50,240 bases of DNA from positions 1 through 50,240 of the forward strand of contig JACKGC010000001.1 in assembly GCA_020632135.1 (NCBI GenBank), read 5' to 3'. Of this stretch, positions 1-47,515 are shown in pieces (position 1 is the stretch's first letter; the number at the start of each line of letters is the position of its first letter). The notes under the pieces were generated by a model. It had not been told where the DNA came from and searched no databases. It saw only the letters and a list, made by a program, of their open reading frames with translations. Source of the stretch: Candidatus Nomurabacteria bacterium (GTDB taxonomy: Bacteria; Patescibacteriota; Minisyncoccia; Phycocordibacterales; UBA918). A program made the translations under genes and the position numbers.

Positions 1-308
1 GCCCGAGGATTCGAAGCCCGATTGAGCTGGATTGTGAGCCTGCGAAACAATCCAGCCAATTGGGGTACTGAAACTGTAAGTTTCGAGTCCTCGTGGACCC
101 GCGAGTACCGAAAAAAGTCCGTCAGGACTTTTTTCGTTTGTACGAGCGAGGTCCACGAGGACGAGAACCGAGTCGCGGCGAAGCCCGCAGCCGGAGCGAA
201 GCGGAGGCGAGGACCGCGACGAGTGGAGGTCAAGGGAGCGAGCTATTTTTGAGTCTGCAAGACGAACAAAATAGCCGCGAGAGTGACCGAGTCCTCGTGG
301 ACCCGCCA
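1..308 (+). mobile_element. Two stacked target-duplicating structured inserts downstream of a tRNA that lies outside the window (left end truncated)
   Basis: The tRNA-like 3' end CGAGTCCTCGTGGACCCGC occurs at 84-102 and 288-306, the second followed by CA to give CCA. An antisense copy GGTCCACGAGGAC sits at 150-162. GAAGCCCGATTGAG (13-26) and CCAATTGGGGTACTGAA (56-72) are identical to 9839-9852 and 9881-9897. Confidence 0.7.
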
Positions 309-310
309 AA

Positions 311-342
311 AAACCGCCGGCAGCTTCGCTGCCGGCGGTTCT
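311..342. terminator. GC-rich palindrome / bidirectional terminator with a 21-bp REP-like core
   Basis: AACCGCCGGCAGC-TTC-GCTGCCGGCGGTT with A/T tails, between the insert and the convergent pilin gene. The core recurs in reverse orientation at 30545-30565. Confidence 0.7.
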
Positions 343-350
343 TGTGCACC

Positions 351-1259
351 CTAATTACAAGTGCAACCAGCCTTCAAGTCGTAGTGGTACGGATCATTAG
401 GATAATTCTTCCACACCAGACAAGAACTGTTAGCGGCTGCCTGCACGTTCGGGCTACCATGATTTATGCCACTGATGTCAACGCCGATGCCTGATGAGTG
501 TGTAGAATTTGTTTGTGCCACCGCTCCACACATAGGCAGACCATGCTTCAACCGATCTGACTCGATCGCAGCTTTGATGTCGTTACAAGCTGGCTCAGAA
601 ATACTGTTGAGCTGACAAGCCTTCGTGCTCACTTCATACAAGTGCGCTTGATATGCGGGCGGCCGATACGCAGAGGTGACCGTACCTCCTACCAAGCCGG
701 TAAACTTAGCTACACATGCCTGCAGCGCACTATTGTTCCAAATCACAGTCTGTCCATTTTCCATCTGCTGTGCCAACGGATCAGTGATTGGTGACAGTGG
801 CGTGACCGGACACACCCCAGGTTGGGTTGATGTTGCTGTAGGTGATTGTCCAGTACCAGTAAACTGCGTCGAGCACTCCACCTTCGACCACACTCCATAG
901 CCACTGATCTCTCCATTACCACCAGCCAGCAGACCCTTCATGACCGTATCTACCAAGAGCCACGCTGCGAGCACGATCACTAGCCCCACCACGGCGTTCG
1001 TCATCTTGCTCTTGGCCGCCGACTTCGCTTCAGTGTTACCACCCGAAGTCACGAGCCCAAAGCCTGCAATGGCTGCCACACCAGCAAACACTACAAACAA
1101 CACCCCAATGAGCCAGACCAAGATCTTATTGGCCATCGAAACGAAGTGGCAGGCCGAACACTCAGCACCACTACATGGCACAAACCCCTGCGCACTTGCC
1201 GCTTCCGGTAAGAACACCACCGCCAACACAGCCAGAGAAAAAAGAATATTCTTGGTCAT
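351..1259 (-). CDS. TrbC/VirB2-like CPR pilin fused to a C-terminal peptidase M15-like (D,D-peptidase fold) Zn domain, about 302 aa
   Basis: Start MTKNILF chosen over the ORF-track start at 1361. It has a signal-like N-terminus, FVPC..C..CH and a two-TM pilin core (AGFGLVTSGGNTEAKSAAKSKMTNAVVGLVIVLAAWL). The C-terminus has TSAYRP, STHSSGIGVD (H-x6-D) and DPYHY, which match the M15 Zn ligands. Confidence 0.75.
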   Translation of the reverse strand: MTKNILFSLAVLAVVFLPEAASAQGFVPCSGAECSACHFVSMANKILVWLIGVLFVVFAGVAAIAGFGLVTSGGNTEAKSAAKSKMTNAVVGLVIVLAAWLLVDTVMKGLLAGGNGEISGYGVWSKVECSTQFTGTGQSPTATSTQPGVCPVTPLSPITDPLAQQMENGQTVIWNNSALQACVAKFTGLVGGTVTSAYRPPAYQAHLYEVSTKACQLNSISEPACNDIKAAIESDRLKHGLPMCGAVAQTNSTHSSGIGVDISGINHGSPNVQAAANSSCLVWKNYPNDPYHYDLKAGCTCN

Positions 1260-1360
1260 AAAATGAATATAATGCGGCATGGCTGGGTAATTATCTCGTA
1301 ATTCCTTTACTGCAGTATAGCACTCACACTTTCTCGCCCACACTGAGTTGTAGACAGGCA

Positions 1361-1756
1361 CTACCCACCTGAGCAGCTAATCGTGTTCCAAAAACCACTT
1401 CCCAGATCATCTGAATCCACCAATGACTTCATCACAAAATCAATGATCAGCCACGCTGCCAGCACGATCGCAAACCCAATAGCAGCATTGACCATCATAC
1501 TTTTTGCAGATTGTTTTGCGGCCGGGTTGCCACCAGAAGTCACTAAGCGCATTCCCGATACGATAAAGAGAATAGCGGTGATCGTTCCCAAAACCGCCAC
1601 CAACCACGTCACAACGTTGTCCATAAGGGACACCACATGACAAAATTCACACGCTGTTTCCCCAGGTCCACCACACGGCACCAAACCAGCTGCGAGCGCC
1701 ATACTCGGCATAAACGATACCACCGCAACCAATAATGGGAGAAACACACGAACCAT
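1361..1756 (-). CDS. TrbC/VirB2-like CPR pilin, 131 aa
   Basis: Start MVRVF. It has GLVPCGGPGETACEFCH, two hydrophobic helices and SGGNPAAKQSAKSMMVNAAIGFAIVLAAWLII, and is a paralogue of the adjacent gene. Confidence 0.85.
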   Translation of the reverse strand: MVRVFLPLLVAVVSFMPSMALAAGLVPCGGPGETACEFCHVVSLMDNVVTWLVAVLGTITAILFIVSGMRLVTSGGNPAAKQSAKSMMVNAAIGFAIVLAAWLIIDFVMKSLVDSDDLGSGFWNTISCSGG

Positions 1757-1849
1757 AGCGCCATCATAGCACAGCCAGGCTTTGAAAAATGCGCAAGGTG
1801 TGATATTTTGGTGCAACTTGCAGACACCCCTGCAACACAATTCATGTAA

Positions 1850-2056
1850 TTGCGTCGGTGGTGGAGTGGATGAGAAATGAATTTGATTCATTTCTCATCT
1901 GTTCTTCGAGCGAAGCGAGAAGATTGACCGTTGTGAGTAAAAACGAACCGGTCAAAGGAGGACACTGTAATTGACCACGCAGATGATCTGCTGGGTCTAC
2001 CAGATTACAGATCTCCTACAACACAACTTAATATCTTTGCGTCGGTGGTGGAGTGG
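1850..2056 (-). mobile_element. Target-duplicating insert on the 5' side of tRNA-Tyr
   Basis: A 20-bp direct repeat TTGCGTCGGTGGTGGAGTGG lies at 1850-1869 and 2037-2056 (the tRNA 5' end). There is a 13-bp hairpin at 1870-1898, and an internal ATTGACCAC is the reverse complement of the tRNA D-arm GTGGTCAAT. Confidence 0.65.
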
Positions 2057-2121
2057 TCAATCACAACAGACTGTAAATCTGTCGGCTTATGCCTTCGCTG
2101 GTTCGAATCCAGCCCGGCGCA
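2039..2121 (+). tRNA. tRNA-Tyr (GTA)
   Basis: Acceptor GCGTCGG/CCGGCGC, anticodon arm ACAGA-CTGTAAA-TCTGT, long variable arm and T-loop GTTCGAATCC. CCA is not encoded in this copy. Confidence 0.95.
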
Positions 2122-2343
2122 CGAGTACAAAAATGAGCATCCTTATTGGATGCCATTTTTGTTCGTGCGGCGGGAGAAAGCAAACTGCTTTGCTTTCGTC
2201 TGGATTCGAAGCTCCGGACGATGTTTTGTGAGCTTTCCAAGCGAACAAAACGAGGAGGAGCCGTCCAAGAAACCGAGTCTCGTTTGCGAGCGGAGCAAAA
2301 CAAACGAGCCGGTATTCGGGGACGAATCCAGCCCGGCGCACCA
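2104..2343 (+). mobile_element. Target-duplicating insert on the 3' side of tRNA-Tyr
   Basis: A 19-bp direct repeat CGAATCCAGCCCGGCGCAC lies at 2104-2122 and 2323-2341, the second followed by CA. The antisense target is split as 2163-2174 plus 2200-2210 around a 25-nt hairpin (2175-2199). The core at 2260-2322 is homologous to 47260-47323. Confidence 0.8.
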
Positions 2344-2375
2344 AAAAGCGGCCCTTGCGGGGGCCGCTTTTCTTT
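2344..2375. terminator. Bidirectional intrinsic terminator between the tRNA-Tyr locus and clpB
   Basis: AAAAGCGGCCC-TTGCG-GGGCCGCTTTT followed by a T-rich run. Confidence 0.8.
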
Positions 2376-2380
2376 TGACT

Positions 2381-5092
<2,712 letters not shown>

Positions 5093-5203
5093 GGTGTTTA
5101 AATTCATTTATACGGTACTCGGTCAAGCGGTTATTTCTCCTGTGGCAAAGCAGGCCGTTATTCAGTAGTACGTACCAGTACTTTGTATATTGCAATGAAA
5201 CGA

Positions 5204-6421
5204 CTAGTGAGTCAAACCCCTCATAAGCGCACAGTGCGCCATAAGCGCTGTAACAAGAGCGTGGAGGTCCTCGTTGGTGGTACCAGGGCCAATGGTGAAG
5301 CGGAGGGTGGAGGCGGCGCGGGCGGCGTCAGCTGAGGTGGCTTTCACCACCGTGCTCTCACCGCCGCCCGCGCCGCTACAGGCTGACTTGGTACTGACCG
5401 CAAACCCCTTGCTGTCGAGCCAGACAGCGGCGTACTCGGTATCAAAGCCAAGGATAGAAATGTTGATATTATTTGCCAAGCGATCTTCTCCCGTTGGGCC
5501 ATTCAAAATCGCGTTAGGAATTGTTTCTAGGAGCCCTTTGATTCCTCCATCTCGCACACTGCGGGCTCGCTTCGCTCGCTCGCACCAATCGCTCTGGGCC
5601 ACTTCTAACGCCACCGCTGCTCCTACGATACCTGCCACGTTCTCTGTGCCTGGCCTAAGTCCAGCTTCTTGGCCGCCGCCGAAGGCGGCGGCCACAAGTT
5701 CCACCCGCCGACTACGCACCAGCACCCCTACCCCTTTCGGTCCACAGAATTTTCCTGCGTCAAGCACCATCACATCAGCACCAGTACTACCAAACTGACA
5801 ATTGAGCCAGAGCGGCGCTTGCGCCGCATCGAGATGAAACATGATCTTCGTGCCATATGTTTCCTCAGCCTCGCGCAGCACTTTCTTAATCCCATGAAGT
5901 TTCTGCACCACACCGATCTCACTGTTGGCATACGCAACCGAGAAAAGTACCGTTTTTTCTGAAAGCAGCTCACGCAAATGTGCGAGCTCAACAACTCCCT
6001 CCTCATCAACATCAACGTACTTCACCACTACCCCACGCCGCTTAAGAGCGCTCATAGTATTCATAACAGACGGATGTTCAATGCGCGTCGTGATCACTTC
6101 CATTTCTGCGGAGGCCTTTCCTTCGCACGTTGTACTTGCGGAGGCCTTTCCTTCGCACATTGCTTCGAGAGAGCCTAAAATAGCCAAATTGTTAGCCTCA
6201 GTGCCGCCAGACGTGAAGGTGATGAACTCTGGGCGGACCTGGAGAACGCGCGCGACTCCGTCGCGCGCGTTCTCCACCGCCCGCCTGGCCACCTGCCCCT
6301 CTTGGTGAATCGCGCTCGCGTTACCAAAGTCACCCTCAAGAAACGGCAACATCGCCACTTTTGCCTCCGGCAAAAGTGGCGTCGCCGCCGCCCAGTCTAG
6401 ATAAATCCTTTTCTCTTGCAT
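5204..6421 (-). CDS. Cysteine desulfurase (IscS/NifS family, class V aminotransferase)
   Basis: IYLDWAATP, FTSGGTEANN, HLDAAQ, the PLP lysine in AGKFCGPKG, RPGTEN and the catalytic Cys in SACSG. Start MQEK chosen. Confidence 0.92.
   Translation of the reverse strand: MQEKRIYLDWAAATPLLPEAKVAMLPFLEGDFGNASAIHQEGQVARRAVENARDGVARVLQVRPEFITFTSGGTEANNLAILGSLEAMCEGKASASTTCEGKASAEMEVITTRIEHPSVMNTMSALKRRGVVVKYVDVDEEGVVELAHLRELLSEKTVLFSVAYANSEIGVVQKLHGIKKVLREAEETYGTKIMFHLDAAQAPLWLNCQFGSTGADVMVLDAGKFCGPKGVGVLVRSRRVELVAAAFGGGQEAGLRPGTENVAGIVGAAVALEVAQSDWCERAKRARSVRDGGIKGLLETIPNAILNGPTGEDRLANNINISILGFDTEYAAVWLDSKGFAVSTKSACSGAGGGESTVVKATSADAARAASTLRFTIGPGTTNEDLHALVTALMAHCALMRGLTH
6107..6158. repeat. 22-bp direct repeat (30-bp period) in frame inside the desulfurase gene
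   Basis: TGCGGAGGCCTTTCCTTCGCAC at 6107-6128 and 6137-6158, translated as CEGKASA twice. Confidence 0.9.
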
Positions 6422-8517: not shown

Positions 8518-8518
8518 G

Positions 8519-8602
8519 TGCCGGGAATGGGACTTGAACCCATATGACCTTGCGGTCACAACATTTTAAGTGTTGCGCGTCTACCGATTTCGCCACCCCG
8601 GC
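8519..8602 (-). tRNA. tRNA-Leu (TAA)
   Basis: The reverse complement reads GCCGGGGTGGCGAAATCGGTAGACGCG, anticodon arm CAACA-CTTAAAA-TGTTG, long variable arm, then GGTTCAAGTCCC. Confidence 0.95.
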
Positions 8603-8606
8603 AATA

Positions 8607-9089
8607 CTACTTTTTTCGCTTCTGATTTTTTCCTCGATGTGTTGACTGTAAACTATGACAGTTTGGACAGAGAATTCGTAAATTTTCTAAACGATTATCA
8701 TACCTGTCACCATTGATATGGTCGAGCTCGACCGGGATTCTACCATCTTCAGCCTGTTCTGCCCACCCACACAGTTCGCACTTAGCCTGTTTAAGCCCCG
8801 CTCGAAATAGTCGATTTTTGAGCTTATAACTCTGATAATCAGTGCCTTTTACAAGAATCTCAGACAATTCCTTCTTTGGCACAAAAGAAAATGTTCTATT
8901 TTTTCGCCAACCCTTACCTGTGAAATGACTTATATCCAAACCTTCCTCGCGGATTATTTTTTTTACCTGCTCATAATTACCCCCCGCTGGCACCAAGCCC
9001 AGCTTCTGGATAACCTCACGTATACTGAACGATTCTGTCACCGCCTTTTTGAGCTTAGAATGATCCCATTTTCGTTTTCTTGGCACCAT
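8607..9089 (-). CDS. Free-standing HNH endonuclease, 160 aa
   Basis: CELCGW...ELDHINGDRYDNRLENLRILCPNCH with a helical N-terminal DNA-binding region. It is more AT-rich than its flanks and stops 4 bp before tRNA-Leu. Confidence 0.9.
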   Translation of the reverse strand: MVPRKRKWDHSKLKKAVTESFSIREVIQKLGLVPAGGNYEQVKKIIREEGLDISHFTGKGWRKNRTFSFVPKKELSEILVKGTDYQSYKLKNRLFRAGLKQAKCELCGWAEQAEDGRIPVELDHINGDRYDNRLENLRILCPNCHSLQSTHRGKNQKRKK

Positions 9090-9171
9090 ACGAGTGTACC
9101 ATATGAATACACGTATTCCACACAAATCTTTTCCTTATCTTGCTAATTAATGCTATAGTGTCACGCATTAC

Positions 9172-9243
9172 GTCCTGGTGGTGAAGTGGAAACACCGAAG
9201 TCTGCAAAACTTCTATGCGCGGGTTCGATTCCCGCCCAGGACT
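9172..9243 (+). tRNA. tRNA-Cys (GCA)
   Basis: Acceptor GTCCTGG/CCAGGAC, anticodon arm GAAGT-CTGCAAA-ACTTC, T arm GCGGGTTCGATTCCCGC and discriminator T. Confidence 0.95.
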
Positions 9244-9317
9244 CAATTTTGTACTGGATATGACCCTTGAATTATCGGTTTGTTTATTGTACACTCAGGC
9301 GCACCAACATTTTTTAT

Positions 9318-9390
9318 CCGCCTTTAGCTCAGTTGGTAGAGCAGCTCGCTCTTAACGAGACGGTCCAAGGTTCGAGTCCTTGAAGGCGGA
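9318..9390 (+). tRNA. tRNA-Lys (CTT)
   Basis: Acceptor CCGCCTT/AAGGCGG, D arm GCTC-AGTTGGTA-GAGC, anticodon loop CTCTTAA and T arm CAAGG-TTCGAGT-CCTTG. Confidence 0.93.
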
Positions 9391-9598
9391 CAGTCGTAAA
9401 ACGCAGAAGTTCCTGTCTTAGGACAGGAACTTCTGCGTTTTAGCAAGCAAACTGCTTTGCTTGCGTGCGACTGTCCGAGGCGCGGCGATGTAATTTGCTC
9501 GTTCCTAGAGCAAATTACGAGCGAGCCGGGGTCGCAGGTACTTACTAGAATTGGAGCGCAGCGAACAATTATAGTTAGTAACCTGTGACGACAGCAGT
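9391..9598 (+). mobile_element. Structured insert downstream of tRNA-Lys (same family)
   Basis: A 20-bp perfect inverted repeat is followed by the 25-nt hairpin (9442-9466) and then GCGACTGTCCG, which is antisense to the tRNA end and trailer. The core at 9521-9589 is homologous to 29353-29419. Only a short GACAG duplication is visible. Confidence 0.7.
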
Positions 9599-9684
9599 AG
9601 TCTGCGTCACTCACGGCGTTAGTCCGGGCCGCAGGCATGTTTTCGAGGACAAGCCATATATTTTCTGCTATACTCACCCCCGAC

Positions 9685-9766
9685 GCGCAGGTGGCGAAAT
9701 TGGTATACGCGCTAGTTTTAGGCACTAGTGGAGCAATCCGTGGAGGTTCAAGTCCTCTCCTGCGCA
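9685..9766 (+). tRNA. tRNA-Leu (TAG)
   Basis: Acceptor GCGCAGG/CCTGCGC, anticodon arm CTAGT-TTTAGGC-ACTAG, long variable arm and GGTTCAAGTCC. Confidence 0.95.
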
Positions 9767-10064
9767 CAAAGCAAGTCCGCGTGTAGCGGGCTTTTTGTGT
9801 GCAGGAAGCAAAGTCTGGGAGACTGTGCATGAGGGCTTGAAGCCCGATTGAGACACGATCCGACCAGCGGGAGGATCTGTCCAATTGGGGTACTGAACGT
9901 GTAGCGTTCAAGTCCTCTCCTGCGCACAAAGCAAGTCCGCGTGTAGCGGGCTTTTTGTGTGCAGGAAGCAAAGTCTGGGAGACTGTGCATGAGGGCTTGA
10001 AGCCCGATTGAGACACGATCCGACCAGCGGGAGGATCTGTCCAATTGGGGTACTGAACGTGTAG
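9746..10064 (+). repeat. Two identical tandem copies (160-bp period) of a tRNA-Leu-targeted insert
   Basis: 9746-9904 equals 9906-10064. Each unit is the tRNA-Leu 3' end, a hairpin, the split antisense target and a core shared with 13-72. Confidence 0.9.
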
Positions 10065-10089
10065 GGTTCAATTCCCGCTCCCGGCACCA
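10065..10089 (+). pseudogene. Orphan 3' fragment of a different tRNA-Leu-like gene, ending in CCA
   Basis: GGTTCAATTCCCGCTCCCGGCACCA does not match tRNA-Leu(TAG). It is 3 mismatches from the 3' end of tRNA-Leu(TAA). Confidence 0.7.
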
Positions 10090-10091
10090 AG

Positions 10092-10130
10092 AAAAAACCA
10101 GCCGGGCGCTTCGCGCCCGGCTGGTTTTTT
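10092..10130. terminator. Bidirectional terminator
   Basis: AAAAAACCAGCCGGGCGC-TTC-GCGCCCGGCTGGTTTTTT, an 18-bp perfect stem. Confidence 0.8.
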
Positions 10131-10136
10131 TCTTCT

Positions 10137-11180
10137 TTATGAAACCTTCACCTTCGTCTTCGTAAACGGCTGTCGCTTACGTACATACTGGTTGTACCAA
10201 CGTGCCAGGGGCTTCTTGTATTTCTGAGGAATCTTATCAACTTGAGCACACTTCCACGAACAATACCCACCCCGTTTCTCCACACACTGATCACACCCAA
10301 TAAAGAGCGCGTGGCAGATCTGATTTTTGCAGTGGTGATGCGAGTCACTCTTCGTTTCTTTGCAAAGGTGGCAGTTCGAAATTACCTCATCACCGATCCG
10401 TTCGCCTAGACGCTCATCAAATACAAAATTCTTCCCTCTAAACTTATTTTTGAGCCCTTGTTGCTTTACCTGGTGCGCGTAATCAATAATGCCACCCTTG
10501 AGGTGTTTCACATCCTTAAAACCGTTGTGCTTCAGCCACGCACTCGCTTTCTCGCAGCGGATCCCGCCAGTGCAATAGATCGCTACCTTCTTGTCCTTGT
10601 GTTCTTTGAGAAGCTCCGGAGTACGCTTCAACTCATCGCGGAAGGTCACAAAATCATCGGGTGTGATCGCCCCTTCGAAATGCCCCACTTCCGCTTCATA
10701 GTTGTTGCGCATATCAAACACCACGGCGTTTGGGTCTTCAACATACTCATTCATTTGGGCCGCAGTGAGATATTCACCGGTATTAGTAACATCAAAGGTG
10801 TCGTCATCGAGCCCATCGGCTACGATCTTATCACGCACCTTAATGGTAAGTTTAAAAAATGAGGGGATCTGACCTTCTTCCACTGCGATCTTATACGGAA
10901 CACCCTTCAGTTCTGGCTGATTCTGTACCCAGGCATCAAACTGATCCCAGTACATTTTTGGCACGTTCATCTGGGCATTAATGCCTTCAGACGCGACGTA
11001 TATCCGACCCATACAATCGAGCGCCGACCATTTCGCGTAGAGTTTGTCACGGAAGGCCTGTGGATCAGCGATCCGCACATAGCGATAGAACGACACGGTC
11101 GTTCGTGGACGGGTGTCAGCCACGGCGTCACGGCGCTTTTGCTCGCGGCTGCGAAGGTCTCTGACTGTAGTAGTTTGCAT
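10137..11180 (-). CDS. trhO: Rhodanese-domain tRNA U34 hydroxylase TrhO (YceA/UPF0176 family)
   Basis: SFYRY, GRIYVASEGINAQ, DMRNNYEAEVGHF, YCTGGIRCEKAS, HLKGGIIDY, FVFDERL and a C-terminal Cys cluster. Confidence 0.88.
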   Translation of the reverse strand: MQTTTVRDLRSREQKRRDAVADTRPRTTVSFYRYVRIADPQAFRDKLYAKWSALDCMGRIYVASEGINAQMNVPKMYWDQFDAWVQNQPELKGVPYKIAVEEGQIPSFFKLTIKVRDKIVADGLDDDTFDVTNTGEYLTAAQMNEYVEDPNAVVFDMRNNYEAEVGHFEGAITPDDFVTFRDELKRTPELLKEHKDKKVAIYCTGGIRCEKASAWLKHNGFKDVKHLKGGIIDYAHQVKQQGLKNKFRGKNFVFDERLGERIGDEVISNCHLCKETKSDSHHHCKNQICHALFIGCDQCVEKRGGYCSWKCAQVDKIPQKYKKPLARWYNQYVRKRQPFTKTKVKVS

Positions 11181-11301
11181 GGCGAAAATCATACCGTATG
11201 GGCGGCTTGCTACGCAAGCCGCCCGCACCCCCAATCACCCCACACACCACCTCAACCCCAAAATACCTCACAAAATAAGGCCCGCTTCCCTACCTTCTAC
11301 C

Positions 11302-28038: not shown

Positions 28039-29271
28039 ATGGAACAGATACGATCAGACGTGGAGTCATTTGCACGGATCCGAGTGGTTGGTGTTGGTGG
28101 TTCTGGTAAGAACGCGGTGAACCACATGGTCTCTTCAAAGGTGAAGGGGGTGGAATTTATTGCCATCAACAGTGACGCGCAAGACCTGCACCACTCACTC
28201 GCAAAACGAAAGATCCACATTGGTAAGAACCTTACCCGCGGCCTCGGCGCTGGCGGTAACCCTGACATGGGCCGACGCGCTGCAGAAGAAACTCGAGAAG
28301 AGATCGCGAACGCGATCAAAGGATCCGACATGATCTTCATCACTGGTGGTATGGGTGGTGGCACCGGTACTGGCTCAGCACCAGTCGTGGCTAAGATCGC
28401 TCGCGAGAGCGGCGCCCTCACAGTGGGAGTCGTCACCAAGCCATTTCTCTTTGAGGGTCAGGAGCGCATGCGCTTAGCTTTACAAGGCATTGAAGAGTTG
28501 AAGCAAGAAGTAGATGCACTCATTACCATTCCTAACGACCGCCTGCTCGCGATCGTCGATAAGGAAACCACGGTGAGCAGCGCCTTTGAGCAATGTGACA
28601 ATATTCTCCGCCAGGCAGTTGAAGGTATTTCTGATCTCATCACCATGCCCGGTATAATCAACGTTGACTTCGCCGACATTCGAAGCGTTATGGAGAATGC
28701 TGGATCTGCTCTGATGGGCGTGGGTATCTCTTCTGGAGAAAAGCGTGCTGAAGAAGCGGCCCAAGCTGCTATCAATTCACCACTACTTGAAGTGTCTATC
28801 ACTGGTGCGAAGGGTGTACTCTTTGCGATTGCGGGAGGCGACGACCTCGGTATGCTCGAGATCCAAGATGCAGCACGTGTGATTACTGAATCAATCGACC
28901 CACAAGCGCGTGTGATCTTTGGTGCAATCCGTGACGAAAAGCTGAAGAAGAACGAACTCAAGGTCACAGTGATCGCCACCGGTTTCCCTGAAGAATCAGG
29001 CCATGGCAGCAACTACAGCATTGCGCGCCGCGCACCGGTGGCCGCAGAGACGCGTGAGCGCGAAGTGGAAGAAGACAAAGAGCCAGTGCGTGGCAAGATC
29101 TTCAATTCCCTACCAAAAAAACCTGAAGTAACGAAGCCAACTGAACCAATAAAGCCCACCCCAACCGAGCCGCCCAAGCGCGACCCGAAGCCAATCGATG
29201 CTGCTGACGACACCGACGATGATGACTGGGGCGCGGTTCCTGCATTCTTGCGTCGGAGTAAGCTGAAGTAA
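28039..29271 (+). CDS. ftsZ: Cell division protein FtsZ
   Basis: [15 protein letters not shown], tubulin signature GGGTGTG, NVDFAD and C-terminal VPAFLRR. Confidence 0.98.
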
Positions 29272-29457
29272 GCCACTTGCGCTGTTCGCAAGTATGCGGA
29301 ACCGCGAAGCGCAACAATGTGAGGAGCGGCTTTAGCCCGCCGCGACGAACCAGCGAGCTGGGGTCGCGAACACTTAGTAGATTTAAGCGAAGCGAAGGAT
29401 ATACTTAGTGATTCGTGACCGGTTCCTGCATTCTTGCGTCGGAGTAAGTTGAAATAA
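29234..29457 (+). mobile_element. Target-duplicating insert at the ftsZ 3' end (same family as the tRNA inserts)
   Basis: A 38-bp direct repeat lies at 29234-29271 and 29420-29457 with 2 mismatches. An internal ATGCGGAACCGCG is antisense to the target. The core is homologous to the tRNA-Lys insert. Confidence 0.8.
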
Positions 29458-32765: not shown

Positions 32766-32840
32766 GGCCCCATCGTCTAACGGCTAGGACGCCAGGTTTT
32801 CATTCTGGAAATCGGAGTTCGATTCTCCGTGGGGTCACCA
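32766..32840 (+). tRNA. tRNA-Glu (TTC), CCA encoded
   Basis: Acceptor GGCCCCA/TGGGGTC, anticodon arm CCAGG-TTTTCAT-TCTGG and GTTCGATTC. Confidence 0.95.
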
Positions 32841-34335
32841 ACGAAGATTTATCACGTTTATACTCCTCAGATAGTGAGTAAATAGGCGACAAAACAGCGG
32901 TTCCAAAACCGTTGTTTTGTGTATAAGGAATACTGCCCTCGAAAATAAAATTTTGGAACCGTAGCCTTTTTTCAGGCTGTTTTACCAATCGCTTCCAAGT
33001 ATCAGGAGTATCAATAATGAAACTTATGCAGTAATCAAGAGCGGCTTCAAAGTCTAATTCGCCACCCCGCACTTCAATCAAGTTACTTTGAGCGGCATAT
33101 AGCTGTCGTTCCACTTCTCGTTTTCGTTCTAAGAAGTCAGTCTTGGTATAGATACCCTCTTCAAAATTGTTAAAGATGGCTTTCTTTTTCTCATACAGGC
33201 TAGCGACCTGCTGTCTAACCGTCTCGTTTTGTTTTTCAGCATTGGTGTTATCTTCTCGATAAATTTCCATACACGCCTCTTTGAAAGCGTTGGCAAATTC
33301 AAAGGTAGGATTTATCTCCTCTAGAAAAGAGACAAATGATTCTTCAAGGTCTTTCTTTTTGATTGATTTAGCGTGCGGACAACCTTGTTTGTGATGATGA
33401 TAATAACCGTGCTTCTTGCCACCACGTCCAGTCGAAAAGCTACCTGTTAATGGATCATCACACCACTCGCAAGAAACCAGTCTGCGAAGTGGAAAATTAG
33501 GATTCTTTTCTTGTTTCTTTGTTCCCTTATGTGACCGTCCGGCACCTTGGCATTTATAAAATAGTGACTCAGTGACAATAGGTTCATGTTGTCCTTTGAC
33601 TTCGATGCCCCATTCATCCTTTTTCACGATACCAGCATACAGAGGGTTATGGATCATTTTTTGAATAGTTTGAAACTCAATCTTTTTGCCAGATTTTGAG
33701 CGTAGACCTTTTTCAAATAAGAGAGTGGCTAGAGTTTTGTATGTATGAGTCCCTTTCACATACTCATTGAAAGCGAGGCGGACATACTGAGCGTCGTTAT
33801 CAGGCACCATAACGCCGCCTTTTTCTAGACGTTGATAACCTGTAGGAGCCGGCCAGACCCAGATTCCTTGCTTAAGGCGTTCTCGCATACCAGTCGAGCT
33901 ACGTTCAGAGCGGATACTGTTATCAAATTCAGCTGAAGCAGACAATGTGCCCATTAAGAATTTTCCGATTGGTGATTCATCAACCGGTTCAGTAGCAGAG
34001 CGAATAGTGACACCATATTTATTAAGACTGTTTTGAACAGCGAAGTGATCGGTCTGACTACGAGAAAAGCGGTCTAATTTATATACTATGAAAAAATCAA
34101 TCTGGTTTTTCTTTTGACCACAAAATGAAATTGCTTTAAGAAACTGAGGACGATCGGCAGTTTTAGCAGATTCGCCTCGATCAACAAACACATCAGCAAC
34201 TTCTATACCTTCACGTTCGGCATATTCACGACAAATCCGCTCCTGTGATTCAAGACTAGTTCCATCCACCTGTTCGAGCGAAGACACGCGACAATAGATA
34301 ATCCCTCGCTTTCCTGTCATATCAGTATCATACAT
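32800..34335 (-). CDS. Large serine recombinase (resolvase + recombinase + Zn-ribbon domains), 511 aa
   Basis: Catalytic Ser in IYCRVSS, DRGESAKTADRPQF, VYKLDRFSR, GIWVWPAPTGY, HEPIV and CEWC...HHKQGC. The C-terminus runs into the antisense strand of tRNA-Glu. Confidence 0.95.
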   Translation of the reverse strand: MYDTDMTGKRGIIYCRVSSLEQVDGTSLESQERICREYAEREGIEVADVFVDRGESAKTADRPQFLKAISFCGQKKNQIDFFIVYKLDRFSRSQTDHFAVQNSLNKYGVTIRSATEPVDESPIGKFLMGTLSASAEFDNSIRSERSSTGMRERLKQGIWVWPAPTGYQRLEKGGVMVPDNDAQYVRLAFNEYVKGTHTYKTLATLLFEKGLRSKSGKKIEFQTIQKMIHNPLYAGIVKKDEWGIEVKGQHEPIVTESLFYKCQGAGRSHKGTKKQEKNPNFPLRRLVSCEWCDDPLTGSFSTGRGGKKHGYYHHHKQGCPHAKSIKKKDLEESFVSFLEEINPTFEFANAFKEACMEIYREDNTNAEKQNETVRQQVASLYEKKKAIFNNFEEGIYTKTDFLERKREVERQLYAAQSNLIEVRGGELDFEAALDYCISFIIDTPDTWKRLVKQPEKRLRFQNFIFEGSIPYTQNNGFGTAVLSPIYSLSEEYKRDKSSLVTPRRIELRFPE

Positions 34336-34337
34336 AG

Positions 34338-34517
34338 CTATTTTTCATCGTCCACTTCCGCTGACCCCACGGCGAATTTGGAATCACGGTCTTCTTTATA
34401 AGAATCGTATGCAAGGTGCGCCACTTCATAGATTTTTTCACGAATAAGAGCCACTTCTTCATCAGAAGCATTAGCGAGTTTAGGTTCTATTTCTCTAAGA
34501 TGCTTAAGGCTCATCAT
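34338..34517 (-). CDS. Small helical protein (59 aa) coupled to the recombinase; possible directionality factor
   Basis: MMSLKHLREIEPKLANASDEEVALIREKIYEVAHLAY. It overlaps the Rep stop and ends 2 bp before the recombinase start. The function is inferred. Confidence 0.55.
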   Translation of the reverse strand: MMSLKHLREIEPKLANASDEEVALIREKIYEVAHLAYDSYKEDRDSKFAVGSAEVDDEK

Positions 34518-43363: not shown

Positions 43364-43439
43364 TGTCACGATCACAGAGCGCACTTCCGGTTGGAAGTGC
43401 GTTTTGTTTTGTGTCACAAGATTCTGCTACACTACCCTC

Positions 43440-43988: not shown

Positions 43989-44042
43989 TAAGAACAAGAA
44001 TGGTATAGATCATTTTCATCCCCACAGAGCGAGGTGTTCACA

Positions 44043-44405
44043 ATGAGCGCACAAGCACATGAATTTGCTGACAACCAACCCCTCTACCTCAATGGACCCC
44101 AAAACCTAGGTGAGCGGCTGCGGTTTCAGCGGCGACGTCAGCGTCTGACTCAAGAGCAACTGGCCATACTCGCAGGCACCAACCAAGCGGTCATTCAAAA
44201 GATCGAGAACGGCAAAAGTCTGCGGCCACGCAAGATCAACGAACTCGCCGCAGCACTTGAGGTCAACGTGGCCTGGTTGCAGTGCGGTATCGGCGACAGC
44301 ACTCCACTCTCAGACGAGGCAATAGAAGTCGCCAAGTCCTGGATGAAGCTGTATGAGCACGAACGCGCTCAGGTACGCGACTTGCTCCAGCAGCTGGCAA
44401 GGTGA
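44043..44405 (+). CDS. XRE/Cro-C1 helix-turn-helix transcriptional regulator
   Basis: LGERLR...LTQEQLA..AGTNQAVIQKIENGKSLRPRKINELAAALEVNVAWL. Confidence 0.9.
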   Translation: MSAQAHEFADNQPLYLNGPQNLGERLRFQRRRQRLTQEQLAILAGTNQAVIQKIENGKSLRPRKINELAAALEVNVAWLQCGIGDSTPLSDEAIEVAKSWMKLYEHERAQVRDLLQQLAR

Positions 44406-44470
44406 ACCAGTGGATCAAAAAGGCCTCGACGCTTCGCGTCGAGGCCTTTTTTAATCACAACACCTCTAAC

Positions 44471-44986
44471 CTACCCAGGAAAGACACCCAGCGCATCATT
44501 GAAGCGGTTGATGTAGTTGAATAGTCCAATCACCGCGGTGAGCTCTACTAGTTCCTCATCATTGAAGTGTTCTTTGGCAGCAGCCGTCACCGCAGGATCG
44601 ATCTCATATGCTTTCTCGGTCACCGCTCGAGCAAATGCGATGGCTACCTTTTCACGTTCATCTGCTTCCTCCTCGATCCTTTCGATTGCAGTGTCATCGA
44701 GACCAAACTGTCGCAGCTTTGCATTTGCAACGTCGATACAGAACTCACACTTATTGATCTTTGAAACTTCGTTGGCCACCTTCCATTTCAAGACACTCGG
44801 CAGCGGCGCATCATCCATGGTCGCTTTAAACATAGCAAAAAAACCGACCAGAATATCATCACAATTAGCCATCACTTGCATCCATTTTGGCACTGGTTTG
44901 TCATGGCTGGTAAATTGTTCGTAGAGCTTACGAGCCTCACCAGATAATTCAGTCGCAGCGACTCGAGCGACGATTGGTTCAGACAT
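44471..44986 (-). CDS. Carboxymuconolactone decarboxylase / AhpD-like protein
   Basis: VSKINKCEFC (CxxC), ELVELTAVIGLFNYINRFNDAL. Confidence 0.88.
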   Translation of the reverse strand: MSEPIVARVAATELSGEARKLYEQFTSHDKPVPKWMQVMANCDDILVGFFAMFKATMDDAPLPSVLKWKVANEVSKINKCEFCIDVANAKLRQFGLDDTAIERIEEEADEREKVAIAFARAVTEKAYEIDPAVTAAAKEHFNDEELVELTAVIGLFNYINRFNDALGVFPG

Positions 44987-45151
44987 GATTATGAAATATT
45001 ACACAGATTAATATTCCTAAGCGTACCATACGAAGGCTACTCAAAACGATAAAAAGGACAGTCGGGTGTTCATGCACAAACATGCCTTGCGCACCACCCA
45101 CACATCAGGCATAGTGTCAGCAAAATTGTTCTTTACACCAAAGGAGGAAAC

Positions 45152-45658
45152 ATGTTTCCTGGTGACATTTGCATCAATGGTGACGCTGCTCACCCGTTGG
45201 CGCTAGCGCTCGCTCATATGCACCAGCGCTCATTCCATTTCCATGGCGTTCGCTACAGCAACCTACAGACCTTTCTGCAGGCCATCACGTATCCGCGTGC
45301 CAGTGACCAAGCTGCGGTCTCCGGCCTACCAGCCAAGGAAATAAGGCGGCACTTAGCGGCAACCCACCACCTCGAACCACCTTTTAGTTTTTTACTCTTT
45401 AAAAACCAGTGGTTCAGACGGCACGGCACAGAGTACCAAGCGCTGCTGCAGCAAGCGTACGACGAACTCTTTGCTCAAGACCTCGAAGTGCGCCACCAGT
45501 TCTTACTTTGCGACCCAGCCGAAACAACCATCACGCTGCGGCCACACAAGCTTAAGCGTATACCGCTGCGAGCGAGCGAGCTGCTCGATCAGTGCACTCG
45601 CTTGCACCGACGAGCTCGCGCCGAAGCCAGCCATGGAGAACCTACCGGCACCTCATGA
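45152..45658 (+). CDS. T4 gp30.3-like (NADAR superfamily) protein, divergent
   Basis: SFHFHGVRYSNLQTFLQAI and RRHGTEYQALLQQAYDELF resemble phage 30.3 proteins. AGGAGG SD. Confidence 0.55.
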   Translation: MFPGDICINGDAAHPLALALAHMHQRSFHFHGVRYSNLQTFLQAITYPRASDQAAVSGLPAKEIRRHLAATHHLEPPFSFLLFKNQWFRRHGTEYQALLQQAYDELFAQDLEVRHQFLLCDPAETTITLRPHKLKRIPLRASELLDQCTRLHRRARAEASHGEPTGTS

Positions 45659-45754
45659 ATTCACACCCCGCTCTAGCGGGGTGTTCTTTTTCAATTTGAC
45701 AACACCATACAACACACGTACAGTGCCTAGCGGCCTTCGATCTTTGGAGCAGTA

Positions 45755-45994
45755 ATGCACGCACTTATTTCGGCATTCCCTTTTCATTTCTTGCGGTTAC
45801 TAGGAGTCAGCATACTCATTGGCGGCGTGCTACTCGGCGCTTGGCAGGTGTTGGCCGGCACCAGCGTATTCGGACAAGCAAACGATATTATCGTAAGCGT
45901 AATCTTTATCCTTGGTGGCGGACTGGTCCTCGTACTGACCAGATGCATCTCTATCGATCATCACCGCACACGCCGCAACCGCAGCCGCACATAA
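45755..45994 (+). CDS. Small two-TM membrane protein, 79 aa
   Basis: Two hydrophobic helices and a basic tail, followed by a terminator hairpin. Confidence 0.6.
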   Translation: MHALISAFPFHFLRLLGVSILIGGVLLGAWQVLAGTSVFGQANDIIVSVIFILGGGLVLVLTRCISIDHHRTRRNRSRT

Positions 45995-46027
45995 ACCCAC
46001 ACACCCCGCCTTCGGCGGGGTTTTGTT

Positions 46028-46969
46028 TTATTCATCAGTGCTAATATTCACAATTCCACTACTACCAACCTGCAAGTATCGCCCATCATCTTCACCAAGC
46101 CAGATAGTCGAACCTTCCCGCACGACGACAGAACCATTGAACACATATGCGCTTTGGGTTGGGTCATACATGTAATACGGTGTTTCTGCAGAGGGATTCA
46201 CGTGTGCACCCACGAGCTCAGCAACACGCTGCAGTGTCTCCTCCCTCTCTTCCCCGAGCAGCTCTCGATACTGCGTAGGCGCAGCTCTGAATTCTTCAGA
46301 CTCCCTATCGATCAGATATTCTTCTGGATGAGTCACACCTGGACCGCATTCATGATCAAATTGACTAATACTACTTGAAGCTATACTCGCTGCATTGCCG
46401 AGATAGTCAACACACCAGAAACTGTCTCCGTCTTGCATCCACACTTCCGCCGCCCAACTCTCCGGTGCGTCATAACACGATCCGGACGAAACATCATCAT
46501 CAGAAGCGGTGACTGCACTGTGAAACAGCATTGAGACTTGCTCATCGGCACACACTCCCACATAGCTAAATTCATTCTGATTATAGTAGATCTCACACTG
46601 ACTTCTCATGTTACCCAAGCTTTGTTTTGTGGCAGCGGAGTTTGAAACGTCACGCTCCTGCCCCACCGACATAAGCACAAACAGCAGGAGCAATATCGCA
46701 CCCAAAAATGTATAAGCGCCGATGAGCCAGGCACGTCGCAACCAGCGACCACACTGCTTCAAGTAACTGAGTACATTCAGATTTAGAATCACCACACCAG
46801 CCAAGAGTAGCAGGCCAGAGATCCAGAAACCATACGGCACAATTGAATGTGTCCACGCGAGGAATTTCAGGAATAAAAATAACGCGGCAGCTTGGAATAT
46901 GAAACTGACACAAGCCAACCCTAGGGCACTAATTAGCCTTACGATCCAATTGGAGCGCCAAGTTTCCAT
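46028..46969 (-). CDS. Three-TM membrane protein carrying a type IV pilin-like globular domain, 313 aa
   Basis: TKQSLGNMRSQCEIYY..SYVGVC..C...WAAEV...FWCVDYLG is the CPR type IV pilin head pattern. There is no GFTLIE prepilin leader. Confidence 0.65.
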   Translation of the reverse strand: METWRSNWIVRLISALGLACVSFIFQAAALFLFLKFLAWTHSIVPYGFWISGLLLLAGVVILNLNVLSYLKQCGRWLRRAWLIGAYTFLGAILLLLFVLMSVGQERDVSNSAATKQSLGNMRSQCEIYYNQNEFSYVGVCADEQVSMLFHSAVTASDDDVSSGSCYDAPESWAAEVWMQDGDSFWCVDYLGNAASIASSSISQFDHECGPGVTHPEEYLIDRESEEFRAAPTQYRELLGEEREETLQRVAELVGAHVNPSAETPYYMYDPTQSAYVFNGSVVVREGSTIWLGEDDGRYLQVGSSGIVNISTDE

Positions 46970-47043
46970 ACGTACTCATACGTGTAACATGTGCTTGTTG
47001 GGCATTTTCTCTTCACCACATTCTTTGTTACACTCTCCTCGAC

Positions 47044-47132
47044 GGAAACGTGCCAGAGTGGTCGAATGGGGCGCTCTCGAAAAGCGTTGTATCCTTTATC
47101 GGGTACCGAGGGTTCGAATCCCTCCGCTTCCG
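47044..47132 (+). tRNA. tRNA-Ser (CGA)
   Basis: GGAAACG...CGCTTCC-G acceptor with one mismatch, anticodon arm GCGCT-CTCGAAA-AGCGT, long variable arm and GAGGG-TTCGAAT-CCCTC. Confidence 0.93.
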
Positions 47133-47515
47133 CAAAGACAAAATAGCGTCCCGCAAGGGCGCATATTTTGTTTGCGGAAGCGAGCAAGCCAACTACTTGG
47201 CTTGCGTGAGGGATTCGAAGCTGCGGAGCATGTGCTGAGCTTGCGAAGCACAGCGAGCAGCCGTCCAAGAACACGAGCTGTTTTCGAGCACAGAGTGTGA
47301 GAAAAACAGCCGTGATTCTGGGACGAATCCCTCCGCCTGTTGAAAATACCGCCGTGAGGCGGTTATTTTCTTAGGCGGAAGCGGAGCAAAGTGCCCTGCG
47401 GCACTTTGCGTAGGGATAAGAAAGCCGGAGCGATGTCGCGCGGAGCGGAGCGAGCACGACACGCGAGGCGGGGTCGCGAAAAATTTTTACAGAAAATTTA
47501 TCAGTGACCGAATCC
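47115..47515 (+). mobile_element. Two stacked target-duplicating inserts downstream of tRNA-Ser
   Basis: CGAATCCCTCCGC lies at 47115-47127 and 47324-47336. A perfect 22-nt antisense of the tRNA end is split by a 25-nt hairpin (47183-47207). The second unit has a 27-nt hairpin (47385-47411) and ends GTGACC-GAATCC. Confidence 0.8.

Follow-up and report, generated by a model that had tools for sequence, protein, structure and literature searches.

The ends of tRNA genes and of ftsZ in this tiny-genome bacterium carry mini-inserts without protein genes that appear to be mobile elements of an undescribed type, addressed by base pairing. Our favoured interpretation, held tentatively and at somewhat less than even confidence, is that the units are non-autonomous, single-strand-folded insertion modules that would be addressed by base pairing and moved by a putative trans-acting enzyme. 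With similar caution, they may represent a large protein-less module family in this order of Patescibacteria/CPR-like bacteria. A literature search returned no published description of such units. The window referred to below is the whole 50,240-nt stretch of DNA that was analysed.

Anatomy and placement of the units

We refer to the gene-side target copy as S1, the antisense arm as S' and the far-side target copy as S2; H is the hairpin between the S' halves, and the module is the conserved P1-P2-P3 fold, 116 nt in length, between S' and S2. A unit reads S1, a terminator (in tRNA units), S', the module and an abutting S2. S1 is the replacement, element-supplied copy of the interrupted gene end and S2 is the displaced original end; the gene-end copy carried by the element measures 13-45 nt and the antisense arm 12-22 nt. 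Insertion positions are fixed: in tRNA genes they lie in the T-loop (between T55 and C56), at the 3' tip or in the D-loop, and units are also seen in tmRNA and in the final codons of ftsZ. At least 14 of the 33 tRNA genes in the genome have units, the majority with a 19-nt repeat beginning at T-loop C56, and the T-loop box GGTTCGAATCC comes close to being a palindrome. In five of five clean cases, H interrupts S' precisely where the acceptor stem gives way to the T-stem (tRNA 65/66). The opening bases of S2 pair, in cores A and B, with a short stretch inside the core (TGAAC or ATTCG); both unit junctions would lie in short duplexes, an arrangement that recalls the two guides of IS608. Motif families are shared among units: D6 corresponds to the H hairpin, D2 and D7 to core A, D19 to core B and D8 to core C. 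The features of the window are as follows.

1-102 (+): unit W1, cut by the contig start (families D2, D7); right half of antisense arm about 5-17, core A 13-72, then a small hairpin; target copy 82-102 (+), from an unassembled tRNA-like 3' end
103-306 (+): unit W2; tip hairpin about 109-138, unsplit antisense arm about 146-169, structured core; target copy 288-306 (+), then host terminator about 307-340; direct repeat at the window start 19-21 nt (82-102 and 286-306)
1841-2056 (-): D-loop (5'-side) unit at tRNA-Tyr (family D13), minus-strand grammar read from sequence; displaced promoter and tRNA positions 1-18 at 1841-1869, hairpin 1870-1898, then core; antisense arm 1965-1978, spanning the junction with the working gene; at 2028-2056 the promoter and positions 1-18 that belong to the unit itself, now heading the working tRNA; direct repeat 18 nt identical (29 nt at 86%), 1841-1869 and 2028-2056
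2039-2122 (+): tRNA-Tyr(GTA), its final 19 nt (2104-2122) being target copy S1
2123-2341 (+): T-loop unit at tRNA-Tyr; terminator-like tip hairpin 2137-2153; antisense arm left half 2165-2174, H 2175-2199, right half 2200-2212; core B about 2213-2322; S2 2323-2341; host terminator 2344-2371; direct repeat 19 nt (2104-2122 and 2323-2341)
9392-9598 (+): tip-type unit behind tRNA-Lys(CTT); tip hairpin about 9399-9441, H 9442-9466; antisense arm about 9466-9479, which pairs with the left end of the unit itself and with the tip of the tRNA; core C 9475-9590 (114.8 bits with the core C covariance model); direct repeat only about 5 nt, GACAG (9590-9594)
9746-9905 and 9906-10065 (+): two tandem 160-bp units (family D1) in the T-loop of tRNA-Leu(TAG), 99% identical to each other, with a 22-nt target copy in each; terminator-like tips 9773-9793 and 9933-9953; antisense arm split in each; core A 9839-9897 and 9999-10057
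10062-10131 (+): displaced tRNA-Leu(TAA)-type 3' end GGTTCAATTCCCGCTCCCGGCACCA, then host terminator 10091-10131
29223-29457 (+): ftsZ 3'-end unit; working end S1 up to the stop codon at 29271; antisense arm 29287-29306; core C 29304-29420; S2 29421-29457 (+), a second, coding-competent end; direct repeat 49 nt at 86% (29223-29271 and 29409-29457)
32800-34335: serine recombinase ORF adjoining tRNA-Glu; inverted tRNA-end copy 34360-34377
47115-47336 (+): Ser unit 1, T-loop of tRNA-Ser(CGA); S1 47115-47133, terminator-like tip 47146-47162; antisense arm left half 47174-47182, H 47183-47207, right half 47208-47222; core B, then a 13-nt target copy 47324-47336; direct repeats at this gene 13-14 nt
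47337-47617 (+): Ser unit 2 and remnant; tip 47348-47363, split antisense arm about 47374-47419; C-like core 47420-47509 (36.3 bits with the core C covariance model); partial target copy 47510-47517, then an unassigned stretch; final 14-nt target copy 47604-47617
about 47628-47651: host terminator 3' of the Ser units

All ten units described in an earlier note on this DNA are present at the coordinates it gave, as are the direct repeats of their targets (13-49 nt at most loci, about 5 nt at tRNA-Lys). The antisense target copies that it reported are real, and an H of 24-25 nt divides them in the Tyr, Ser, Leu(tag), Leu(cag) and Asp units. Its 'short hairpin' after the first target copy was likewise found, and can be refined to a terminator-like hairpin in tRNA units. 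The common grammar claimed for the unit 5' of tRNA-Tyr emerges when the minus strand is read; this unit sits in the D-loop. The last 'Leu' copy (about 10062-10085) proved to be a tRNA-Leu(taa)-type 3' end and not a Leu(tag) end: compared with the tRNA-Leu(taa) of a relative (locus L044), GGTTCAATTCCCGCTCCCGGCACCA is non-cognate to the tRNA-Leu(TAG) gene upstream.

A conserved strand-specific fold

Single-strand folds of four units lay 4.9 to 10.2 standard deviations below those of shuffled sequences, and none of 200 shuffles folded as well as the units tested. The core C covariance model finds about 100 copies of the module in 80 metagenome contigs, and an alignment of 100 metagenome copies was examined. 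Covariation in this larger alignment is strong: 95.6% of cells pair, against 74.6% when shuffled and 26-40% with slid partners, and 28 of 30 module pairs show compensatory changes on both sides. Since module pair 168/264 is a near-invariant G·U (94 of 99 sequences), the gene-sense strand is the folding strand. The model also matches core B at 2209-2323 (E 2e-5) and the core of the second Ser unit, so that B and C are variants of a single P1-P2-P3 scaffold; of the three core types distinguished previously, the shared motifs stand but the separateness of B and C does not. No Rfam family, the attC model included, matched the module at E below 5.

We entertained the possibility that the units are not mobile at all, and that gene ends are duplicated and inverted locally by faulty replication, for example when synthesis folds back at a terminator hairpin. 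In form, S1 and S' are indeed the arms of a long inverted repeat, with the terminator-type tip hairpin between them. Nevertheless, the recurrence of one conserved 116-nt module and one H hairpin at unrelated loci in many genomes nearly refutes this explanation, simple fold-back copying would not yield an H that interrupts S', and S1 and S2 can derive from different ftsZ alleles; we regard it as extremely improbable.

Presence and absence among relatives

The core C model detects modules in 54 of 61 relatives; within the genus, copy number per genome ranges from 0 to 26. Alleles without the insert do occur: 19 same-genus genomes have a filled ftsZ site and 8 an empty one, and these states are scattered without clustering over the ftsZ tree, where they need seven parsimony changes, at least three of them forced by well-supported branches. 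At locus L004, S1 and S2 differ at about eight synonymous sites and both encode FLRRSKLK*. Given that S1 and S2 at ftsZ can differ only synonymously, they derive from distinct ftsZ alleles and not from a fresh target duplication. Units flank the GC-skew switch on either side and in both orientations; replication-strand bias is absent, which makes them a poor fit to a simple lagging-strand-template rule as in IS608 and counts against the favoured reading.

The antisense arm tracks its target

Comparison of the module's upstream flank with the downstream sequence gave a mean longest complementary run of 5.57, against a permuted mean of 4.34 ± 0.12 (permutation z of about 10), with runs of at least 7 in 22 loci where 2.8 were expected. 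The reverse complement of S' begins 2 nt to the left of the repeat in nine of ten ftsZ loci; these two extra bases are host-only, and whether the Gly codon there ends in G, C or T, S' agrees with that variable third position. At ftsZ loci in which the two end copies diverge, S' mostly sides with S1, and in tRNA units it invariably reaches T54. The pairing of S' with the rebuilt gene runs over the junction and takes in bases beyond the repeat that only the host has. The antisense segment is thus a target copy, as had been proposed, but not a mere copy of the duplicated segment. In-place co-evolution, or co-transfer of the flank by homologous recombination, could alternatively account for the match between S' and S1, in place of any need for a guide.

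It is quite unlikely, in our judgement, that the module acts mainly as RNA, with S', module and S2 (or the ftsZ 3' UTR) folding as a tRNA-like or structured transcript. Such an RNA could serve processing or stability, or act as a decoy, with the 3' end of its own gene as the address, and the units would pass between relatives mainly by natural transformation and homologous recombination with the gene and S2 as homology arms. The gene-sense folding strand with its conserved G·U suits this role, as do the ftsZ units, which have no terminator-like feature between gene and module, so that co-transcription is expected, and whose S' remains complementary to the working gene end despite synonymous drift. 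The H split at tRNA 65/66 would make S':S pairing mimic a tRNA minihelix in which H replaces the emerging tRNA body, and the candidates examined yielded no mobilising enzyme (see below). However, the terminator-like hairpins between S1 and S' in tRNA units make it doubtful that S' functions as part of the tRNA transcript. There is no space for a promoter either, and a co-transcribed S' would tie up the 3' half of the tRNA itself. At tRNA-Gly(tcc) a serine recombinase island of 5.6 kb lies between the tRNA and the downstream units of the array, which puts pairing of their arms with the working tRNA end out of reach within a single transcript. Homologous recombination also fails to explain one scaffold at dozens of unrelated targets with a fixed T-loop position, and the tandem arrays and variable copy number resemble selfish spread. 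We count the insulation of the antisense arm from the tRNA transcript by the terminator in favour of a single-stranded DNA mechanism.

Candidate mobilising enzymes

The genome has no reverse transcriptase. Module-rich genomes such as G009 (19 modules) lack large serine recombinases, and three genomes with 14-22 modules (G006, G010 and G020) lack RAYT-like Y1 genes; the presence of either bears no relation to module copy number. In this genome the RAYT-like genes come with separate REP repeats of their own. A single Xer-like tyrosine recombinase occurs in nearly every genome, even in the module-free G014, and is non-discriminating for that reason. The co-occurrence with enzymes suggested in the earlier note therefore singled out none of these, which weighs against the favoured reading.

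Ordinary double-strand integration of the Campbell type, by a large serine recombinase or the host Xer-like tyrosine recombinase, is in our view unlikely. The units would then be cargo-less CIME/MITE-like derivatives of integrative elements, and an attP with partial palindromic symmetry would either include the module and S' or have them as relics beside it. Islands that integrate in tRNA genes likewise replace the gene end and leave direct repeats on either side, large serine recombinase islands do sit at tRNA ends in this genome (one in the window, beside tRNA-Glu), and the near-palindromic T-loop box would suit a dimeric recombinase. The tRNA-Gly(tcc) island and metagenome locus L112 even unite a serine recombinase and a core C module in one cassette. 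These islands are, however, nested between S1 and the unit tip hairpin and have their own short repeat, GCAC|AA, so that they look like separate elements. One scaffold at no fewer than 14 tRNAs, tmRNA and ftsZ would need many protein specificities, and recombinase presence does not follow module number. Strand-specific covariation with a conserved G·U is unexpected for a double-stranded DNA site, and the module separates S' from S2, leaving no compact palindromic site.

Proposed mechanism and related systems

For the favoured reading, base-pairing-addressed insertion, we infer the following route. The active form would be one folded strand of the element, the gene-sense one, and S' would base-pair with the target over the insertion point, including the bases carried by the host alone. 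Through this pairing the joint between the two element ends, which lies at the foot of P3, would come into register with the target, and there a trans-acting strand transferase might exchange one strand (compare IS608 TnpA with internal guides, integron attC and CTX-phage); replication would then fix the insertion. Units would pile up in tandem behind a gene because the proposed product is hard to reverse. The earlier description of non-autonomous, sequence-programmed mini-elements with a structured core came through four tests aimed at refuting it (empty alleles, covariation, target tracking by the antisense segments over both genomes and loci, and a known family); its mechanism of folded single-stranded DNA and a trans-acting enzyme we retain as a proposal, so that the earlier interpretation as a whole is supported in part.

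Among known systems, IS200/IS605 elements (IS608), PATEs and REP/REPIN with RAYT are likewise short, structured, protein-less copies moved in trans. In IS608-type transposition one folded DNA strand is active, and cleavage and target sites are set at both ends by base-pairing guides inside the element near hairpins, much as we envisage here. IS608 guides are 4 nt long, however, with no long target repeat, whereas the units have both a longer arm and a gene-end copy; moreover, Y1 transposase and modules do not co-vary, the units lack the lagging-strand orientation bias, and the RAYT-like genes of this genome serve another repeat family.

Integron attC sites and CTX-phage/IMEX elements, which use Xer, also rebuild a duplex site with extrahelical features from a folded single strand. 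They exchange one strand, which replication fixes; integration is effectively irreversible, and insertions accumulate in tandem at a fixed site, newest nearest. Integron cassettes go to a single attI and CTX to dif, sites chosen by protein, whereas in the units the target copied by the paired arm changes from locus to locus. The attC model does not hit the module, and this genome has only one Xer-like gene.

Islands in tRNA and tmRNA genes, CIMEs and tycheposon satellites similarly insert in the T-loop or 3' end, restore the gene with an element-borne copy, and have direct repeats, tandem arrays and cargo-bearing versions. They need a target-specific integrase and have neither an antisense target copy nor a conserved folded module, whereas a single scaffold here serves many targets, including the ftsZ end and a tRNA D-loop. 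Finally, the bridge (seek) RNAs of IS110/IS1111 resemble the units in combining a conserved scaffold with short, reprogrammable target-complementary segments and in having a hairpin between the guide halves. Bridge RNA halves read opposite strands around a 2-nt core, whereas both halves of S' read the same strand; the bridge RNA has a second loop that reads the donor, and IS110 insertions leave a 2-bp repeat only.

Units at the ends of tRNA genes, tmRNA and ftsZ

The source genome, G000, comprises 744 kb in three contigs at roughly 50% G+C and has many same-genus relatives, with genomes of 0.5–1.7 Mb; the window, which spans the initial 50,240 bases of contig C1, contains seven tRNA genes. Reading of five regions, together with a repeat search, confirmed all of the units listed in the earlier note, which had described about ten dispersed, structured non-coding inserts at tRNA ends and ftsZ. 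A typical unit is a protein-less insert that runs from the working gene end (S1) through a tip hairpin, an antisense arm (S', often split by a hairpin, H) and a folded core, or module, to a second copy of the target (S2). The unit at tRNA-Tyr is laid out as follows.

Parts of the tRNA-Tyr unit
2104-2122: S1, the last 19 nt of the tRNA
2137-2153: terminator-like hairpin
2165-2174 and 2200-2212: S', split by a 25-nt H at 2175-2199
ending at 2322: structured core
2323-2341: S2, the second 19-nt copy, with the host terminator next

Folded as single strands, four units lie 4.9 to 10.2 standard deviations below shuffled sequences. At least 14 of the 33 tRNA genes of the genome bear a unit, and the targets as a whole comprise 14 or more different tRNA genes, tmRNA and ftsZ. 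Target repeats measure 13–45 nt overall. Those at tRNA genes are 19–22 nt long and extend from C56 or G53 to position 74, most of them starting at C56 of the T-loop (GTT/CGA); the tRNA-Lys(CTT) unit instead occupies the 3' tip and has a repeat of just 5 nt. The working tRNA genes at the units are intact, as judged by ARAGORN and Rfam. Upstream of tRNA-Tyr, a D-loop unit on the minus strand follows the same grammar and supplies the promoter and tRNA positions 1–18. One unit is found at the last codons of ftsZ, and another lies outside the window, behind a presumed tmRNA gene adjoining smpB. The idea that the second target copy supplies an encoded CCA, by a form of splicing, was rejected because most tRNAs here have no encoded CCA, whether they bear a unit or not.

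The two units at the contig start (window 1-306) are directed at a tRNA-like 3' end (TTCGAGTCCTCGTGGACCCGC) that has no corresponding gene in the assembly, and their repeats probably caused the contig break at this point. ARAGORN calls no tmRNA in the region behind smpB further along the same contig (C1:162772-165800, beyond the window). That region ends in a core C unit, the target copy being a tRNA-like ...TCATCTCCACCA 3' end. The tmRNA gene of G000 probably bears inserted units that hide it from ARAGORN.

A conserved fold on the gene-sense strand

Fifteen aligned type-C cores share a P1-P2-P3 fold with compensatory changes in 19 of 30 pairs, and a covariance model was built from them. Its further matches include the second Ser unit and, at tRNA-Tyr, the type-B core, indicating that B and C are variants of one scaffold. 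Covariation proved strong in a larger alignment of 100 core copies from 80 metagenome contigs, in which 28 of the 30 pairs change on both sides and 95.6% of cells are paired, compared with 74.6% in column shuffles and 26–40% with slid partners; since the model guided this alignment and a pattern covering part of P3 was used to retrieve the contigs, the figures carry some pairing bias, although the margin is a very wide one. At the foot of P3, 94 of 99 sequences have G·U at one and the same pair. Since this would be an A·C mismatch on the opposite strand, the gene-sense strand is the folding strand. A duplex of ACTTAGT with ACTTAGT, containing a T·T mismatch, is also conserved in the module.

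The cores match no family already described in Rfam or in the literature searched: no Rfam family reaches E below 5 with any core (the gathering threshold and E up to 5 gave tRNAs and chance matches only), and no published description of these elements was found. The ftsZ module (29304-29420) looks chimeric, its P2 being identical to that of the ftsZ module of a relative (L002) and its P3 nearly identical to that of the tRNA-Gln module of G000 (C1:117182-117297). Such sequence likeness hints at exchange between module copies within a genome.

The antisense arm spans the insertion point

In 76 metagenome copies, the flank upstream of the module and the sequence downstream of it are complementary far above permuted pairings. 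The mean longest complementary run is 5.57, against 4.34 ± 0.12 in permutations, and runs of 7 nt or more occur at 22 loci where 2.8 are expected, so the antisense segments do track their targets. Host-only bases were tested at the ten ftsZ loci where S' is clear. In nine of them its reverse complement begins two bases left of the repeat and there matches the third base of a Gly codon, which is variable (G, C or T) and present in the host copy only; where S1 and S2 mismatch, S' mostly agrees with S1. At tRNA units S' always reaches T54, which is two bases past the repeat, and in tip-type units it pairs with 6–8 nt of the tRNA tip and with the unit's own left end. This host-side pairing indicates that the complementarity of S' is to the uninterrupted target and bridges the point of insertion. 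The arm had been described as an antisense copy of the target; it is antisense and follows the target, but it takes in host-only bases and is not simply the duplicated segment.

Cores A and B contain a second short antisense piece (TGAAC or ATTCG) that pairs with the first bases of S2, which places both junctions within short duplexes. In all five clean cases, the break that H makes in S' falls between the complements of positions 65 and 66 of the tRNA. As this is the boundary of the acceptor and T stems, the S':S duplex resembles a tRNA minihelix in which a hairpin takes the place of the emerging tRNA body. The resemblance could be meaningful, or H could simply mark the middle of the arm.

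Filled and empty sites, and the two target copies

Within the genus, per-genome counts from the core C model range from 0 to 26, the highest being in G012, with matches in 54 of 61 relatives; as many as 26 copies of a single core type can thus share a genome of ~0.8 Mb. In a phylum-wide sample, this narrow model with shallow scoring matched 8 of 301 genomes. Three pattern matches arose in viral contigs, none confirmed by the covariance model and none near a tRNA. Empty alleles do exist: among same-genus genomes, 8 have no insert at the ftsZ site and 19 have one. Parsimony requires seven changes on the ftsZ tree, at least three of them forced by well-supported branches, and the empty and filled states are no more clustered than shuffled labels. 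Two relatives with zero core C copies, G014 and G026, also have empty ftsZ sites.

At several ftsZ loci, most clearly L004, S1 and S2 differ at many synonymous positions and both encode the same protein end and stop. These differences rule out a fresh target-site duplication, and the copies derive from different ftsZ alleles, as expected of an element that brings its own copy of the gene end in the manner of tRNA-integrating islands. Local replication errors, which would generate the repeats in place, are the least likely of the rival explanations. At the tRNA-Lys locus of a relative (L035) the repeat is 45 nt long, with 23 nt beyond the tRNA, so that the right boundary is variable and the left boundary fixed.

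Our results firmly support a family of non-autonomous insertion modules having a conserved, strand-specific fold and a target-complementary arm. To this extent the interpretation offered in the earlier note is partly upheld, with its reading of the arm as a copy of the duplicated segment amended.

Action in DNA or in RNA

A different explanation is that the units function primarily as RNA and were spread by transformation and homologous recombination. The terminator-like hairpin that lies between S1 and S' in tRNA units argues against this. S' there comes directly after the tip hairpin, leaving no space for a promoter, and if co-transcribed it would tie up the 3' half of the tRNA. At the tRNA-Gly(tcc) array of G000, a 5.6-kb serine-recombinase island now parts the tRNA from the downstream units. 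On the basis of the terminator, the sequestration and this island, we favour a role for S' in DNA. The ftsZ units speak for the RNA explanation, since nothing separates gene from module and the module there should belong to the 3' UTR.

Candidate mobilizing enzymes

With genomes spanning 0 to 26 copies, the genus makes a clean natural experiment in which to seek the mobilizing enzyme. Module number is tracked by none of the reverse transcriptase, Xer-like, large serine recombinase or Y1 genes. RVT_1 has no match in G000 and matches in only 9 of 37 relatives; a reverse transcriptase acting from a primer-binding site was rejected as G000 has no such enzyme and ftsZ is also targeted.

Integration as double strands by a recombinase would account for the units as it does for tRNA-integrating islands and CIMEs, whose att repeats from the tRNA 3' end and restored gene are found here too. 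The serine recombinase and Xer-like genes, however, do not follow module number. For 14 or more targets, G000 has three large serine recombinase frames of intact length, a truncated fragment and a single Xer-like tyrosine recombinase. The Xer-like gene, at 317 kb, adjoins no array and is common to nearly all relatives. Relative G009 has 19 modules and no resolvase-domain match, and G014 has no modules, yet serine and tyrosine recombinases are present. Cassettes that combine a serine recombinase with a core C module proved to be nested, the island lying between S1 and the tip hairpin of the unit with its own short GCAC/AA repeat. A role of the large serine recombinase as mobilizer is not supported, because its presence does not follow module number and its islands are nested as separate elements.

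One of these recombinase genes, a full-length one, lies within the window.

Serine recombinase gene
32800-34335, minus strand: ORF of a large serine recombinase, 511 aa (Resolvase, Recombinase, Zn-ribbon)

This ORF and the 3' half of tRNA-Glu(TTC), a tRNA with encoded CCA, overlap (region 32766-34377), and an inverted, near-exact copy of the T-stem/acceptor end of the tRNA is found at 34360-34377, just past the gene start. The arrangement resembles an element of a separate class, one that goes into tRNA tips and likewise keeps an inverted target copy.

G000 has two RAYT-like Y1 genes. Y1_Tnp (PF01797) is matched in 23 of 37 genomes and in none of G006, G010, G013 and G020, relatives with 9–22 modules (14–22 in G006, G010 and G020). 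The IS200-like gene at C1:482699-483397 (232 aa) is surrounded by its own REP palindromes (21 nt, TGCGGAGGCCTTTCCTTCGCA), of which the genome has 15 copies; two of these are in the window, where they occupy 6107-6162, at 6107 and 6137. The second gene (C1:103609-104211) has a different flanking palindrome. With a REP family of their own and no co-variation with module number, RAYT-like Y1 proteins are not supported as mobilizers.

Clustering of the ORFs of metagenome loci for a recurring neighbour enzyme returned only housekeeping genes and two others, a 245-aa protein without a Pfam match and a YraN/UPF0102 nuclease, neither of which adjoins modules. The window units and the cargo cassettes examined contain no IS110-type DEDD/Tnp recombinase ORF. 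Unit orientation is inconsistent relative to GC skew, giving no replication-strand bias. The skew of C1 changes sign once, near 345 kb, the putative origin, and most window tRNA genes are on the strand that would be head-on to replication, which is unusual.

Comparison with known systems and a proposed mechanism

IS200/IS605 elements have subterminal hairpins, an internal guide that pairs with the cleavage or target site, and no long target duplication; the units have hairpins and junction-spanning complementarity, together with target repeats of 13–45 nt. The Y1 HUH transposase (PF01797) that accompanies IS200/IS605 elements is missing from the four module-bearing genomes named above. Integron attC sites form a single imperfect hairpin (R''-L''...L'-R') with extrahelical bases, in contrast to the three-helix module, which has no Rfam attC match; integron cassettes also use one attI beside intI rather than 14 or more tRNA genes, tmRNA and ftsZ. 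In IS110/IS1111 each guide half reads a different strand next to a 2-nt core, and the repeat produced on insertion is 2 bp long, whereas both halves of S' are complementary to the same (sense) strand and the unit repeats are 13–45 nt. Group II introns and retrons depend on a reverse transcriptase, of which G000 has none.

The mechanism that we favour, and that we infer from these features, is an exchange of single strands in which S' acts as the guide. While the element is free, its S and S' would be base-paired, forming a stem that encloses the module. A target whose match to S' runs at least two bases further would oust this S, bringing the insertion point of the target into register with the joint between the two ends of the element, at the foot of P3; a single strand exchange, once replicated, would then give exactly the product observed. 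Such a scheme borrows internal guides at both ends from IS608, and the folded strand, the single exchange, irreversibility and arrays from attC and CTX recombination.

The units are a new variant of non-autonomous site-specific insertion elements, and there is a fair chance that they form a new nucleic-acid-addressed class. More tentative is a joint reading of such a gene-less class, in which the roughly 116-nt folded module would recruit a host or otherwise shared enzyme; the 12–22 nt arm would select the insertion point by pairing across it, with the host-only bases as toehold; arm and carried gene-end copy would be re-written for each essential-gene target by a templated process; and the arm:target duplex would mimic the tRNA acceptor/T-arm minihelix, so that the recruited factor could be a tRNA-binding enzyme. 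If S' does set the insertion site, the units would represent natural, base-pairing-programmable DNA insertion without a protein gene, beside the guides of IS608 and the bridge RNAs of IS110. They are harmless in an unusual way, landing in the ends of essential genes and rebuilding them, and they matter for annotation because they give rise to fragments of tRNA 3' ends and to second copies of the ftsZ end.

The elements also reshape tRNA gene neighbourhoods in Patescibacteria, as in the Cys/Lys/Leu cluster adjoining window units. Among same-genus genomes (loci L031-L048), gene order and orientation are shuffled in this Leu(taa)/Cys/Lys/Leu(tag) cluster (window 8518-10131), which adjoins ORF 10137-11234. 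In G000 a non-cognate 3' end of Leu(taa) type has been left behind the Leu(tag) array, at ~10062-10085. This, together with the shuffling, suggests T-loop crossovers between non-cognate tRNAs.
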